From NCBI RefSeq assembly GCF_024298765.1, contig NZ_CP101210.1: a DNA stretch of 64,000 bases; one strand, written 5' to 3'. This document shows positions 10,690-16,001 of this stretch, in pieces. The DNA is from Escherichia coli. GTDB lineage: Bacteria > Pseudomonadota > Gammaproteobacteria > Enterobacterales > Enterobacteriaceae. The number at the start of each line of letters is the position of its first letter. Within the stretch, counting starts at the first letter, position 1. The notes below the pieces were generated by a model, which was not told the origin of the DNA, ran no database searches, and worked only from the letters and a program-made list of their open reading frames with translations. The position numbers and the translations under genes were made by a program.

Positions 10690-12219
10690 ATGAGACGGGC
10701 AATCAGCTACATCAGATTTTCAAGTGAACGACAACTAAAAGGGGACTCTGTACGCAGACAATCTAAGCTGGTCACTGACTGGCTTGATAAGAACCCTGAG
10801 TTTTACTTGGATTCATCCTTGAGCTTTAAAGATTTGGGGAAAAGTGCTTTTAGTGGTAAGCACTTGAAAGGTGGCTTAGGTGACTTTTTAACCGCTATCG
10901 AGAAAGGGCTTGTTAAAGCTGGTGATACACTACTAATCGAGAGTTTAGACCGTCTCTCACGTCAGGATATTGATATTGCTTCTGAGCTATTACGTCGTAT
11001 CTTAAGGGCTGGTGTAGATATAGTCACACTGAGCGATGGTGAACATTACACACGAGAAAGTTTAAAAGACCCGTTATCCCTGATTAAAAGCATTCTGATA
11101 ATGCAGCGGGCGCATGAGGAAAGTCTGAGGAAGTCTGAGCGTGTCCAAGCTGCATGGAACCGTAAAAAAGAACTCATCTCCGAAGGTATCAAGGTATCTA
11201 GGCGTTGTCCTGCATGGTTAAGGCTGAATGATGACCGTCGAACATTCACTATCATCCCCGATAAAGTGGAAGTTGTTAAACGAGCATTTGACCTGAGATT
11301 ACAGGGTTTAAGCTTTTGGGCTATCACCAGAACTTTAAACGATGAAGGCCACTTGTCATTGAATCAATACACACCTAAACAAAAGGGATGGTCTGATACT
11401 GCTGTAAAGAAACTACTCAGAAATCGTGCTGTGATTGGATGTTTCACACCTGCTGGACGTGAAGAAGTTCAGGGTTACTACCCCGCAATAATCAGTGAGT
11501 CACTATTCTATCGAGTACAGCAACTGAACACAGGGCAATATGGTAGGGCTTCTGTATCAAGTAATCCGCTATCAGTCAACTTGTTCAGGGGTATCATCAA
11601 ATGTTCTGAGTGTGGGGCTACTATTGTTCTTGGTGGATATGCCTTAAAACGTTTTGGGATGTACAGATGCCCTAATCGTTCAGCTAACAGGTGTAGTGCA
11701 AAGGCTATCAGTCGTAAGCAAACGGATACAACTATCCTTTACATGCTCGCATTATGCGACCGTTTTGAAACTGAAAATACTGACACTATTGATAGCCTTA
11801 AATTACAGCGTGAAGATTTGCAGCGTAAAATCTCAAAAATGGCAGAACTCGCTATTGAACTCGATGACATGACAATTATCACAGAGAAATTACGTGATAT
11901 GAAGAATGCGCTATCAAAACTCAATCATGATATCGAAGAGGAAACAAAGCGGATAAAGGCCATCACAACTGGAAGCCTCAAAGATATTGACAGGACAACA
12001 AAGGAAGGGATGATAGAGACACAGCTACTTATCAAGGGCGTACTCAAAGAAATAGTTATAGATGCCGCTAAACGTCGCTGTAAAGTGACTTTTCACAACG
12101 GTAAGGTAATTGACCTACCTATAACAGAAAACCCCTCAGAGGACGTTACAGAGGCCATACAGTCGCTTTCTGAAGTCACTGAGAGGGGTTTAATAGATGT
12201 TGATGTAGTAGCGATTTAG
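10690..12219 (+). CDS. Large serine recombinase (integrase-type)
   Basis: About 509 aa: N-terminal resolvase-type catalytic domain (AISYIRFSSERQ with the candidate Ser nucleophile; SLDRLSRQ), a Cys-rich zinc-ribbon-like segment (CSECGATIVLGG...YRCPNRSANRCS) and a C-terminal predicted coiled coil. ATG at 10690 preceded by AGGT. Confidence 0.8.
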   Translation: MRRAISYIRFSSERQLKGDSVRRQSKLVTDWLDKNPEFYLDSSLSFKDLGKSAFSGKHLKGGLGDFLTAIEKGLVKAGDTLLIESLDRLSRQDIDIASELLRRILRAGVDIVTLSDGEHYTRESLKDPLSLIKSILIMQRAHEESLRKSERVQAAWNRKKELISEGIKVSRRCPAWLRLNDDRRTFTIIPDKVEVVKRAFDLRLQGLSFWAITRTLNDEGHLSLNQYTPKQKGWSDTAVKKLLRNRAVIGCFTPAGREEVQGYYPAIISESLFYRVQQLNTGQYGRASVSSNPLSVNLFRGIIKCSECGATIVLGGYALKRFGMYRCPNRSANRCSAKAISRKQTDTTILYMLALCDRFETENTDTIDSLKLQREDLQRKISKMAELAIELDDMTIITEKLRDMKNALSKLNHDIEEETKRIKAITTGSLKDIDRTTKEGMIETQLLIKGVLKEIVIDAAKRRCKVTFHNGKVIDLPITENPSEDVTEAIQSLSEVTERGLIDVDVVAI

Positions 12220-12358
12220 TATCTCTTATTAGGATTCACTGAGTACTTTTTAAGCTTTGAAGCTACCCGACCAGCGTTACTGTTAGCATTGGTGAGGTTG
12301 GTTTTTTCAGCTTCTTCACAAAAAAGCTTCAGAGGTCTTCTTAACCATCCGCTAAGCA

Positions 12359-12402
12359 GGAGAGAGGGTGGTACATGAGAAAGAACCCTCACTTCTAAAA
12401 AG
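12359..12402 (+). repeat. Copy A of recurring element motif GAGAGAGGG-N-ACCCT-N-AAAAG
   Basis: ggagagagggtggtacatgagaaagaaccctcacttctaaaaag; contains the inverted repeat GAGGG...CCCTC; about 140 bp after the large recombinase stop. Confidence 0.5.
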
Positions 12403-12807
12403 ATTTTTTAGCTATTTTGCTTAAAACCATATCAAAAGATACATTTTATTGATTCAGGTCAAAGACAAAAGCATTGACAAAATGGTAAAATTGTTCACAT
12501 GACCTTACTTAACAGACTTTTTAAGAGCTTTTGAGAAGCTTGTTGAACAGACACTCTTTCTGGAGTGTTGTCTTTTACTTAAGAGGTTTGTTTAGATAAC
12601 TCTCAAGGCATCTCTTAAGAATCACTGTTAAGGTGATACTCTCCCTTCGGGTTATATCGTATCTCTTCTCCCGTTAGACAGTTTTTCCTAGCAACTTCAT
12701 AGTTATCTGTCAAGTGCCTTTGAAGATTCCATCAAGACCTCTGAATCTGACCTGATATAGATGCTGTGAAGGCATATTCTCTAGGTCTGTGTAGCTTACT
12801 TAGTGGG

Positions 12808-12853
12808 AAGAGAGGGATATAGTGACCATAGGGGAACCCCTCCTGTTAAAAAG
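12808..12853 (+). repeat. Copy B of the recurring element motif
   Basis: aagagagggatatagtgaccataggggaacccctcctgttaaaaag; same GAGGG...CCCTC arrangement, same orientation. Confidence 0.45.
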
Positions 12854-13356
12854 ACTACTTAGAAGTCTGAGACTTTAGTAAAATCTGTGAATATAGCTTC
12901 TCAGACGCTCTGTAACGCATTCTAAGCGATTTTACCACCTTATTTTAAGGTGGGTGGTACATCCCTATAGGTTACCCTAAAAATGGGGTTAAAACTCGCT
13001 ACAGAGCTTTCTATGAGGCTTGGTAGAGTTGCATAAATTTTACACAACACTTATTCAGCTTCTAAATTTTTTTATAAAAAATCGTAGTAACCCCTCTACA
13101 TTCCCCTTCACCGATAATCTTCAAAAATATCTATCACAGGTCTATACCTGCTAAGTACCCGTCACTACGCCTAAGTGGTCCCCTTTGCAAAATTTTAAAA
13201 TATCTATTGACTTTTTATGTGAACTGTTATAAAGACCGCTCCATCTCTTAGGCATACCGTTATAGCATACTAAAAAGGTATAGCTAACCCCCTGTAAAAA
13301 CCATACCGATTAGCCTTGTAAAACACTTTATCGGTACATTATACTCAACTCATCAA

Positions 13357-13926
13357 ATGAGTAAGGCAAATGAGTATATTATGGCTAACATTGGTTATAT
13401 CCGAGTTTCATCAATCCAGCAGATTACAGACCGTCAACTTGAAGGGGTCGTACTGGATAAGATATTTACTGATAAAGCATCTGGGAAGAATACAGACCGT
13501 CCACAACTAAAGGCTATGCTCGATTATGTTCGTGAAGGTGATGTTATCCATGTACACGACTTGTCACGTTTAGGGCGCTCTACCGTGGATGTATTAACGC
13601 TGGTGGATAAACTTTCACAGAAAGGTATCAAGGTTCACTTTCACAAAGAAGGTCTGATAACTGGTGACGATAACCCCACGTCTAAGATGATTCTCACAAT
13701 CTTTTCAGCAGTGGCTGAAGCTGAACGTAAAATGATGCTTGAGCGTCAACGAGAAGGCTATGAAGCTGCTAAAGCTGCTGGTCGTGTAGTTGGAAGGGGT
13801 AACGGTAAAGCGGTTGACAGAGAAGGTATTAAAGCTGCTCTTGCTGCTGGTGGTTCAATCGCTAAAGTAGCCGCTCAATTCAACGTTGCCAAGTCAACTG
13901 TACAGCGTATTAAAGCTGAAGATTAA
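13357..13926 (+). CDS. Small serine recombinase, resolvase/invertase type with C-terminal HTH
   Basis: 189 aa; GYIRVSSIQQ catalytic motif, IFTDKASG and LSRLGRS motifs typical of Tn3/gamma-delta-type resolvases, C-terminal HTH (IAKVAAQFNVAKSTVQRI). Alternative start ATG at 13381. Confidence 0.82.
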   Translation: MSKANEYIMANIGYIRVSSIQQITDRQLEGVVLDKIFTDKASGKNTDRPQLKAMLDYVREGDVIHVHDLSRLGRSTVDVLTLVDKLSQKGIKVHFHKEGLITGDDNPTSKMILTIFSAVAEAERKMMLERQREGYEAAKAAGRVVGRGNGKAVDREGIKAALAAGGSIAKVAAQFNVAKSTVQRIKAED

Positions 13927-13939
13927 GTCAGGAAATACA

Positions 13940-14623
13940 TTAGATTTTTCTTCCAAATAAACTTGGGAGATTCTTACGGTTTCTTGCTTGCATCATTATT
14001 TCTGGGCTAACAAGTTTTTTTAATTCGCTTCTGTACTCATCAATAGAACACTCATCCGCAACAAGTTTTGAAATCAGGTCTTCAATAGACATAACATCTT
14101 GTTGCAGGAAATCAAGTTCACGAGACAAGTGCTTTTTTTGATTCTCTAACTTTCCTATCTCAGCATTTAAGTTATCTACATCTGTCGCCAATTTCTCTGC
14201 CTGAGATTTCAAATTACTTGTATCTTCTTTTTCTCTTTCGATAAGGTTTTTTTGTTTCTCAATCTTCAACTTTGACGTCAGTCTAGCTGACTCTTCAAGA
14301 TTTTCAGCTTCTACTTTTTGTCTTGCTCGCCATGCGGTTGCCTTGATTTGAAGTAGTGTTACAAGGTTGCTGAAGTAAGGGAAAAAGGTCGCCAAAATGA
14401 ACCCTAGCCCTACGGGATAGCATAATGTTTTTAGATAGAAGTCTTCCGTCGATGTGATTTGTTGAATACGAGTAACAACCGAAGCCTCACTAAGACACAT
14501 GATAGCAATGCTTTTCCAGTTAAATCCCACCCATGACAAAATGATGTAGCCCCATAAAGGGTTAGCTACTCGTTCCTTCAACGCCTGCTTAACTGATTCC
14601 GTGATACTTTCTTCACTACTCAC
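13940..14623 (-). CDS. Hypothetical protein with two N-terminal hydrophobic segments and a C-terminal predicted coiled coil
   Basis: 227 aa ORF confined to the insertion; hydrophobic segments WGYIILSWVGFNW and PVGLGFILATFFPYF, then a K/E-rich heptad-like region; no family recognised. Confidence 0.6.
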   Translation of the reverse strand: MSSEESITESVKQALKERVANPLWGYIILSWVGFNWKSIAIMCLSEASVVTRIQQITSTEDFYLKTLCYPVGLGFILATFFPYFSNLVTLLQIKATAWRARQKVEAENLEESARLTSKLKIEKQKNLIEREKEDTSNLKSQAEKLATDVDNLNAEIGKLENQKKHLSRELDFLQQDVMSIEDLISKLVADECSIDEYRSELKKLVSPEIMMQARNRKNLPSLFGRKI

Positions 14624-14714
14624 AATTACTGCTCCATAGAAAACTCTGGTTTGAGAAATTTTAATGCGAATCCAATCAGTTAGATAGACCTGTAAATAGC
14701 AATTTTATAGAAGT

Positions 14715-14756
14715 CGAGAGAGGGATGACTAACACCCTGCATAGTTTCCTGAAAAG
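14715..14756 (+). repeat. Copy D of the recurring element motif
   Basis: cgagagagggatgactaacaccctgcatagtttcctgaaaag; same orientation; about 95 bp upstream of the minus-strand 227 aa gene start. Confidence 0.45.
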
Positions 14757-14954
14757 AGACTTCGCATATTATCTATATATTTCAATAAGTTATGCTAAAA
14801 AGGAACTATACCAATACTGCATAGATTCTGCGTAAAACTGCTTGGATACTTGGAAATCCACCATTAAATTGCATAGTCATTCACCTGATAAAGCCTGTTA
14901 TTAACAGGTGATAGGATTCGGATGTTCTCATAGTGTATTTAGGGAATTAATATC

Positions 14955-16001
14955 AGCATTACATTTTTATTTTCGGCCATCGCCTCACCGTTTTGGGGTG
15001 GACTCGCCGACCGTAAAGGCCGAAAACTCATGCTATTACGCTCTGCCCTCGGCATGGGCATCGTGATGGTGTTGATGGGACTGGCACAAAATATCTGGCA
15101 GTTTTTGATCCTGCGGGCGCTTCTTGGGTTACTTGGCGGATTTGTCCCCAACGCTAATGCTCTTATCGCCACACAAGTACCGCGTAATAAAAGCGGCTGG
15201 GCGCTGGGTACGCTCTCCACAGGCGGCGTTAGTGGTGCGTTGCTCGGCCCAATGGCTGGCGGCCTGCTCGCCGATAGCTACGGCTTACGTCCGGTATTCT
15301 TTATTACCGCCAGTGTGCTCATACTCTGCTTTTTCGTCACCCTGTTCTGCATCAGAGAAAAATTCCAGCCGGTCAGCAAAAAAGAGATGCTGCACATGCG
15401 GGAAGTGGTGACATCACTTAAAAACCCGAAACTGGTACTCAGCCTGTTTGTCACCACGTTAATCATCCAGGTGGCGACAGGCTCAATTGCCCCCATTCTG
15501 ACGCTGTATGTCCGCGAACTGGCGGGTAACGTCAGTAACGTCGCCTTTATCAGTGGCATGATCGCCTCGGTGCCAGGCGTGGCGGCTCTGCTAAGCGCAC
15601 CACGACTCGGCAAACTTGGCGATCGAATCGGACCCGAAAAGATCCTGATTACAGCGCTGATCTTTTCTGTACTGCTGTTGATCCCAATGTCTTACGTTCA
15701 GACGCCATTGCAACTTGGGATTTTACGTTTTTTGCTCGGTGCCGCCGATGGTGCACTACTCCCCGCCGTACAGACACTGTTGGTTTACAACTCGAGCAAC
15801 CAGATCGCCGGGCGTATCTTCAGCTATAACCAATCGTTTCGTGATATTGGCAACGTTACCGGACCATTGATGGGAGCAGCGATTTCAGCGAACTACGGTT
15901 TCAGAGCGGTATTTCTCGTCACCGCTGGCGTCGTGTTATTCAACGCAGTCTATTCATGGAACAGTCTACGTCGTCGTCGAATACCCCAGGTATCGAACTG
16001 A
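14955..16001 (+). pseudogene. mdtG: mdtG 3' fragment (C-terminal ~348 codons), separated from its 5' part by the insertion
   Basis: In frame from 14955: [43 protein letters not shown]... to ...[13 protein letters not shown], recognised as the remainder of MdtG; no start codon or RBS in native context. Confidence 0.85.

Follow-up and report, generated by a model that had tools for sequence, protein, structure and literature searches.

The Escherichia coli chromosome of contig NZ_CP101210.1 (assembly GCF_024298765.1) carries, within the 64,000-nucleotide stretch analysed here (the window), a 4,306-bp element that interrupts mdtG and encodes two serine recombinases, a large serine recombinase (LSR) that serves as integrase and a small, resolvase-like one. 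We favour, with moderate confidence, the reading that the small recombinase gene and the sites predicted upstream of it make up a self-regulated res–resolvase cassette, an accessory unit that would resolve multimers of the excised element and that is probably idle in the window. The element itself is a ~7-kb deletion derivative of a ~12-kb phage-related family, and the same kind of cassette recurs in this family at one position.

The small recombinase and its predicted upstream sites

The gene and the two best-defined sites upstream of it are:

13381–13926, + strand: small serine recombinase gene, 181 aa (189 aa from 13357), recognized by Pfam, catalytic residues and the ratio of nonsynonymous to synonymous substitution rates (dN/dS)
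13254–13281, + strand: putative res site I (crossover), ATACCGTTATAG-CATA-CTAAAAAGGTAT, a 28-bp 12-4-12 dyad (10/12) with central dinucleotide AT
13303–13337, + strand: putative res site II (accessory site and operator), ATACCGATTAGC-11 nt-CTTTATCGGTAC, a 35-bp dyad

Positions 13357–13926 form an uninterrupted + strand open reading frame (ORF) of 189 aa, a real gene with a complete catalytic set. A sequence-only reading of the window had described an intact resolvase-like protein, and the motifs that it quoted (GYIRVSS, IFTDKASG, LSRLGRS and a C-terminal helix-turn-helix, HTH) are all present, with Pfam matches to Resolvase (PF00239, 3e-37) and HTH_7 (PF02796, 1.7e-4, residues 160–188). Either length, 181 or 189 aa, together with the C-terminal HTH, is that of a small serine recombinase (~180–200 aa). 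The true start is probably 13381 (MANIGY, 181 aa) and not 13357, and the 8-residue extension from 13357 is probably untranslated: MANIGY is the start in the RefSeq annotation of identical copies and in all plasmid homologues, and it places the nucleophile at Ser10, as in γδ resolvase. Residues Y6, R8, S10, Q14, D36, R45, R68, R71, E118, R119, E124 and R125 align with the catalytic residues of γδ resolvase. The deeper comparisons within the family give a dN/dS of 0.10–0.14, indicating purifying selection on the gene, and the identical protein occurs on 612 contigs from several Enterobacteriaceae. PADLOC gave no defence-system assignment for this recombinase, the LSR or the neighbouring 227-aa protein beyond coiled-coil noise.

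Among proteins of solved structure, the top matches are Tn3 and γδ resolvases (~5e-31), followed by Gin (1.5e-23) and Sin (1e-18); identity is 41.8% to γδ resolvase and 36.9% to Gin, with both reference sequences checked against Protein Data Bank entries. A small distance tree of 16 sequences, with two references (one of them an invertase) and no bootstrap, groups the recombinase not with Gin but with proteins encoded on small plasmids and other mobile genetic elements (MGEs), in a clade apart. The label ‘Tn3-type’ in the sequence-only reading holds only loosely: by sequence the protein stands on a branch of its own outside TnpR (42% identity to γδ resolvase). The placement against resolvases and invertases that the same reading proposed as a check likewise ends in a separate clade, with higher identity to γδ resolvase than to Gin.

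The upstream DNA has the layout of a res site. In γδ res, a 28-bp site I and a 34-bp site II are separated by a 22-bp spacer, giving a centre-to-centre distance of 53 bp. In the window, putative site I is the best dyad within the upstream 260 bp, centred 113 bp upstream of the ATG at 13381, and both of its half-sites are top matches of a position weight matrix (PWM) built from four half-sites. Putative site II is centred at −60.5, 52.5 bp from the centre of site I, and a σ70-like promoter (TTGTAA-18-TATACT, 13316–13345) overlaps its dyad. A weaker third dyad, ATACTCA...TGAGTAT, lies at ~13341–13377, so that, set against a three-site TnpR-type res, the window offers two clear dyads of Tn3-like geometry and a weak third. 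Papers on res confirm the three-dimer-site layout and a crossover at the centre of site I.

When the PWM was scanned over five elements, exactly one strong half-site cluster was found in each (5/5), placing the predicted multi-site res once per element; no second copy of the dyad that could act as an inversion or deletion partner was found by PWM in these five. A monomeric element therefore has no second site, inverted or direct, for the recombinase to act on, and this speaks against both an inversion switch and a programmed deletion within the element. One candidate half-site, h1 at 13144, was dropped as part of a different family-wide motif, CTGYTAAGTA.

Clusters of this kind accompany the gene in most of the relatives examined. 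Five to eight copies of a lineage-specific 7-mer lie within ~150 bp upstream in seven of the eight scored relatives (L006–L009, L035, L038 and L041) and in the window, and the upstream repeats of the eighth, L039, were read by eye. The corresponding clusters of diverged relatives number about six half-sites, the 28-bp dyad has a counterpart in plasmid homologues that is built from other half-sites, and between L007 and L038 the positions of the half-sites are kept while the spacers differ. The half-site tracks the recognition helix of the HTH: S-T-[QRK]-T-V goes with GTAGTGA or GTAGTAA, A-K-S-T-V with ATACCGA and S-L-N-T-V with GTATCGA.

Compared with Tn3 and γδ TnpR, the window recombinase thus has the same domain architecture and size, aligned catalytic residues and predicted dimer-binding dyads directly upstream that overlap the promoter, with a 28-bp site I and a site I–II distance of ~53 bp. 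It differs in a 5-residue deletion after helix A, in the replacement of D67 by Ser and in its separate clade; it has no Tn3-family transposase or terminal repeats beside it; its half-site is ATACCGWT instead of TGTCYR and its third site is weak; and it resides in an element integrated by an LSR instead of in a replicative transposon.

The mechanism that we propose has the following steps. Dimers of the 181-aa recombinase would bind site I, site II and probably also the weaker third dyad, and occupancy of site II over the promoter would repress the recombinase gene itself. Where two directly repeated clusters come to lie on one supercoiled molecule, the enzyme would break and reseal the strands in the middle of site I, with loss of the intervening DNA. 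Such paired clusters would come from a dimer of an excised, replicating circle or from a tandem integrated array, and the outcome would be monomers. An excised replicating circle is plausible for those full-size members of the family that encode a replication-initiator-like protein. In the window, ~7 kb comprising all genes between the LSR and the non-coding region has been lost, so that the resolvase, though intact, is probably idle here.

The closest relatives, homologues at 55–76% identity, lie mostly on contigs or plasmids of 4–6 kb, and of those examined the plasmids of two match RNAI (ColE1-type), that of L007 at 49.6 bits, above the Rfam gathering threshold of 47, and that of L009 below threshold (32.9 bits, E = 0.009). 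As a general principle, a resolvase is expected to stabilize such replicons through dimer resolution (PMC2428073). Like the plasmid dimer resolvases, the window recombinase has its nearest relatives on small plasmids, a res adjoining its gene and an expected role in turning multimers into monomers; unlike them, it is chromosomal, in an integrative element stripped of replication genes. Sin, from staphylococcal plasmids, is a distant relative (71 bits) with a two-site res plus HU/IHF. Our literature searches found no characterized member of the recombinase clade.

Several circular ‘plasmids’ of ~2 kb, L006 (NZ_CP116175.1, 1,985 bp), NZ_AP027492.1 (1,952 bp) and NZ_CP130129.1 (2,000 bp), have a 59%-identical recombinase homologue as their sole annotated gene and ~1.4 kb of non-coding DNA, with no RNAI match and no replicon typing. 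We considered whether the non-coding region and recombinase of the window are a captured mini-plasmid and rejected this, because the similarity to the 2-kb plasmids is confined to the recombinase gene. Other homologues of the clade sit in tyrosine-integrase islands or beside AbiTii and DUF4145 genes; one of the latter, 72% identical, lies next to this abortive-infection-type cargo at the yecD/DUF72 site (L035, 3001–5564). That locus was rejected as a member of the element family, with which it shares only the recombinase homologue.

Several observations weigh against a res–resolvase cassette that acts on multimers. D67 of γδ resolvase is Ser in the window protein, whose activity, like the site assignments, is predicted from sequence; members of the clade carry H-[DE]-[LI]-[ST]-R or H-S-I-D-R in this region, and across a subclade D67 seems to be replaced in function by an acidic residue at position −2. 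The third window site is weak (9/12) with a variant half-site, and the site I–II spacing is ~63 bp in the L007 and L038 relatives. Only ~130 of the 540 genomes that carry the family have a small recombinase, the window type in 28 of them, and since most family genomes do without one it is not essential for the life cycle of the element. The truncated element keeps no replication gene, and the proposed substrate may never form in it. Finally, phage satellites are usually packaged from concatemers, for which no resolvase is needed.

The element, its family and the cassette slot

The remaining features of the element are:

10651–14956, + strand: whole integrated element, 4,306 bp, ~39% GC, interrupting mdtG
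10690–12219 (alternative start 10684), + strand: LSR (integrase) gene, PHROG_95 at 1e-80, a 1530-nt CDS in RefSeq
12216–12315, − strand: remnant (last ~33 codons) of a gene for a lysozyme-like ‘phage baseplate protein’, 94–97% identical to L002 4548–4647 and L004 15917–16016
12394–13234, + strand: conserved non-coding region with blocks A (12394–12860), A′ (~12895–13020) and B (13049–13234)
13940–14623, − strand: gene for a 227-aa coiled-coil protein, with coiled-coil-type matches only (Pfam, NCBIfam, PADLOC) and PHROGs without function
14679–14918, + strand: block C, adjoining attR, 76–86% identical in elements at five other integration sites

A shared TCAG core stands at 10647–10650 (attL, ...TCTTCAG|TATAATGG) and at 14953–14956 (attR, ...ATATCAG|CATTACAT), and the flanks, once joined, give the uninterrupted mdtG sequence of 5,393 genomes, with attB TGTCTTCAG-CA-TTACATT. 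Because the flanks rejoin to intact mdtG with a TCAG core, the insertion was precise, as for a serine integrase, and it was made by the adjacent LSR, which also gives weak matches to the XisF and Ccr models. The gene order, dinI-bssS-solA-yceJ-yceI-trhO-lpxL, insert, mdtG′-msyB-opgH, is that of the E. coli chromosome. Inside the element, the LSR is followed by 1.1 kb without ORFs, the small recombinase, the reverse 227-aa gene and a 330-bp non-coding end. The 227-aa protein has a hydrophobic N-terminal segment, judged by eye from the translation, and is a family component of variable position, a 277-aa homologue lying beside attR in elements without a small recombinase. The LSR reading frame runs in the direction of mdtG from a start codon ~40 bp within attL; the integrated LSR can be transcribed only by read-through from mdtG, and in the circle transcription must cross attP from block C.

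Full-size relatives of 11–12 kb (L002 2900–14100, L004 14350–25990, L018 4700–16300 and L019 5560–17400) define the family, which occupies at least six sites: mdtG, yegR/yegS, ymdF, dinB/lafU, tonB/yciI and yecD/yecN. Their shared layout is an LSR, a leftward gene block, 0.5–2 kb of non-coding DNA, optional genes and att. The leftward block encodes a lysozyme-like ‘baseplate’ protein (PHROG_3721), a tape-measure-like protein, several proteins without a recognized function and a Dam-like methylase, as well as an HNH endonuclease and/or a replication-initiator-like protein, the latter in some full-size members such as L004. Our literature searches returned nothing relevant on this element family. 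The PLEs of Vibrio cholerae resemble it as LSR-integrated elements at a specific chromosomal site with a few phage-like genes (tape-measure-like, lysozyme-like, HNH) and no full virion set; there is no sequence relationship between the two. We know of no small resolvase described in PLEs.

Against these relatives, homology in the window jumps by ~7.1 kb after the lysozyme-like remnant, to position 11742 of L002 in the non-coding region, and the deletion junction lies in a 10-bp microhomology, TTCAGCTTCT, at 12306–12315. The ‘small element’ of the sequence-only reading is thus real, but as a decayed deletion derivative. We rejected a resolvase-mediated origin of the ~7-kb deletion as improbable, because the junction is a microhomology unrelated to the dyads.

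The site cluster and the gene together (~13235–13926) occupy a slot between conserved blocks B and C, and the non-coding region lies outside this cassette. The window-type recombinase is present in 28 genomes and at several integration sites, in the same slot and with the unit of putative res and gene intact. A second, unrelated small-recombinase lineage (~102 genomes, 30–34% identity) has TGTCTATA palindromes upstream and fills the same slot, among others in the mdtG-integrated full-size element of strain A1 and in a mini-element of strain NCTC9699, and in E. albertii a third lineage lies in the slot in the opposite orientation. The three lineages are 30–41% identical to one another, each with dyads of its own, and such repeated, non-orthologous occupation fits a generic, self-contained function. 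Elements at yecN have the blocks and the LSR and no small recombinase, so the latter is not an obligate partner of the LSR such as a directionality factor; in the mechanism proposed above, the cassette would be optional cargo in a slot near attR, and not a partner of the LSR. The sequence-only reading noted a resolvase together with an LSR in one small element, as is indeed the case, with the LSR gene at 10684/10690–12219. Its view that the combination is unusual finds no support at this locus, since the pairing recurs across the ~12-kb family with three unrelated lineages in the slot.

The full mini-arrangement of the window is found in only ~8 of 5,426 complete E. coli genomes. In two of these the LSR is split, independently, by ISEc52 (L021 1748–2917) or IS100 (L022 1908–3709) and the small recombinase is intact, and in the full-size element L017 the LSR is split by ISEc12; the element appears to be becoming immobilized in several lineages. 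A second mini-element, that of strain NCTC9699 (L010, NZ_LR134228.1 2769741–2775643), lies at tonB/yciI. It shares the non-coding region with the window element but differs from it in its LSR and in the lineage of its small recombinase, and it too has a gene for a putative membrane or coiled-coil protein on the reverse strand. Its deletion end-points differ from those of the window element, which implies that the mini-architecture arose independently.

Other roles for the recombinase

Of the roles that the sequence-only reading proposed (multimer resolution, action on repeated motifs and inversion of a segment), the first is the best supported and the other two are unlikely. The repeated motifs that it had in mind are probably the AGAGAGGG hairpins and CTGYTAAG boxes of the non-coding blocks; the predicted dyads differ in sequence from these hairpins and from the CTGTTAAG boxes, and occur once per element, which speaks against the recombinase acting on them.

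Unlikely, in our judgement, but deserving some weight is that the protein is mainly a DNA-binding regulator, which would repress its own promoter and read-through into cargo or across attP into the LSR. Several features suit such a role: site II overlaps the promoter-like TTGTAA-18-TATACT, there is a single site cluster per element, the canonical D67 is replaced by Ser, and in the circle the gene points towards attP and the LSR, whose ATG (~40 bp from attL) leaves no room for a promoter. However, throughout a large clade purifying selection has kept the other catalytic residues, Ser10 and the Arg triad among them, which would be needless in a pure repressor; known resolvases do both jobs; and elements without the cassette must still express their LSR.

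A more speculative idea, to which we give little credence, starts from the two independent ~7-kb reductions, in the window and in NCTC9699, that retained the same set of parts: LSR, structured non-coding region, small recombinase with upstream sites, membrane or coiled-coil gene and block C. The mini-element could be a ‘satellite of a satellite’, a hitch-hiker of minimal size that exploits the full-size members of its family, in which the non-coding region would provide replication or packaging in cis and the resolvase would monomerize a mini-circle amplified in trans before LSR-mediated re-integration. The small recombinases of the two mini-elements belong to unrelated lineages.

The cassette may instead be a device for module exchange or cargo capture, in which res × res fusion with MGEs carrying a related res would move the cassette together with cargo; we consider this improbable. 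Members of the clade turn up on small plasmids, in tyrosine-integrase islands and in LSR elements, the cassette borders a variable region with three lineages in the same slot, and the 72%-identical homologue beside the AbiTii and DUF4145 defence-type genes at the yecD/DUF72 site shows it in the company of cargo. But half-sites differ between lineages, making cross-recombination unlikely, the homology breakpoints between elements lie off the centre of site I, and accessory-site resolvases strongly disfavour intermolecular fusion (PMC2428073).

Less probable still is a Hin/Gin/Pin-like invertase whose target would be some part of the element, such as the non-coding promoter region or, in full-size elements, the stretch from A′ to its inverted paralogue. 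The Hin/Gin/Cin/Pin invertases belong to the same superfamily, are about as long and are likewise met in phage-related contexts; PHROG_125 bears the label ‘DNA invertase’, the top NCBIfam match is the Mpi invertase model (far under its cut-off), and full-size elements do hold an inverted pair of A′ paralogues, the second copy lying between hypothetical-protein and HNH genes. Yet no inverted pair of crossover sites or invertible segment was found in the elements scanned, the five PWM-scanned elements each having their single dyad cluster. The A′ paralogues are ~72% identical and without ATACCG half-sites, and the window mini-element lacks the second A′ copy altogether. Furthermore, all ten copies of the non-coding region that we examined are collinear, with no inverted isoform, and the protein is less similar to Gin than to γδ resolvase and does not group with Gin in the small tree.

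Finally, it is scarcely credible that the gene is an orphan tnpR, the last trace of a Tn3-family transposon that has lost tnpA and its terminal repeats: the best solved-structure matches are Tn3 and γδ resolvases and the res-like layout upstream of the gene is as in Tn3, but, as the sequence-only reading had stated, no transposase ORF or fragment exists in the element (the upstream 1.1 kb has no ORF of at least 60 aa, and to the right of the cassette there is only the 227-aa gene before block C), an inverted-repeat scan shows nothing like terminal repeats, the upstream DNA is family-specific and unmatched in 72,556 plasmids, where Tn3-family transposons abound, the protein is of another clade at 42% identity to γδ resolvase, and 28 genomes, with the element at several integration sites, have the unit intact in this one slot.

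The conserved non-coding region and the element family

The non-coding block upstream of the res–resolvase cassette is unannotated and present in 540 of 5,426 E. coli chromosomes; searches of 72,556 plasmids and 50,697 phage records gave no match. Its three blocks are 71–88% identical across integration sites. A strict pattern taken from this region, searched in the genome collection, matched Escherichia albertii only, apart from ~10 chance matches.

Several features point to structure on the + strand. Block A has a conserved promoter-like sequence (AAGACA-18-TAAAAT, 12462–12491) and a hairpin with a C-UUCG-G loop (~12646–12674) whose stem shows compensatory changes in the alignment and by RNAalifold, and long-range helices join CUUAACAG to CUGUUAAG and UCUCCCGUUAA to UUAGUGGGAAGAGA. 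Relative to shuffled sequences, folding gives z = −2.15 and −3.88 on the + strand and −0.78 on the − strand. A search of the element against Rfam gave no credible match, the one hit being NRON at 17.9 bits against a gathering threshold of 50 (E = 0.063).

Block A′ (z = −3.9) folds into a cloverleaf-like four-way junction that ARAGORN does not call a tRNA. It has an inverted paralogue of ~115–125 bp, ~72% identical, inside the leftward operon of full-size elements (L002 9611–9724, L003 9567–9680, L004 20990–21099 and L018 11276–11389), so that both copies are ‘sense’ to local transcription. In a covariation comparison of A′ with these paralogues, sequence blocks are conserved and the suggested pairing registers differ.

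The motif AGAGAGGG occurs three times in the 64-kb window, at 12361, 12809 and 14717 (+ strand), each time in a non-coding block of the element, where it opens a GAGGG...CCCTC hairpin with A-rich sequence (UAAAAAGA or a variant of it) immediately after.

Elements with a gene for an HTH replication-initiator-like protein (L004, L005) lack block A. Some genomes have an endonuclease-like gene of AP2/ERF or HNH type between blocks A and B (L016 3072–3596), with further endonuclease-like insertions in hits H91, H95, H98, H104–H112 and H115; these insertions resemble free-standing or intron-borne homing endonuclease genes.

What had looked like an oddity, an orphan Tn3 resolvase beside an LSR, is most likely a standard res–resolvase cassette of the kind repeatedly acquired by mobile elements. 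The recombinase system is ordinary in kind and its context is new. Small enterobacterial plasmids carry many members of the clade to which the recombinase belongs, and genetic engineering could gain from it an orthogonal resolvase/res pair. Of greater weight than the gene are its surroundings: they reveal an undescribed, LSR-integrated, phage-related element of ~12 kb in about 10% of complete E. coli genomes, with ~0.8 kb of conserved, unannotated and apparently structured non-coding DNA and a cargo slot near attR. A description of this family, with its helper phage and the role of the RNA-like region, would give the E. coli mobilome a new type of element.

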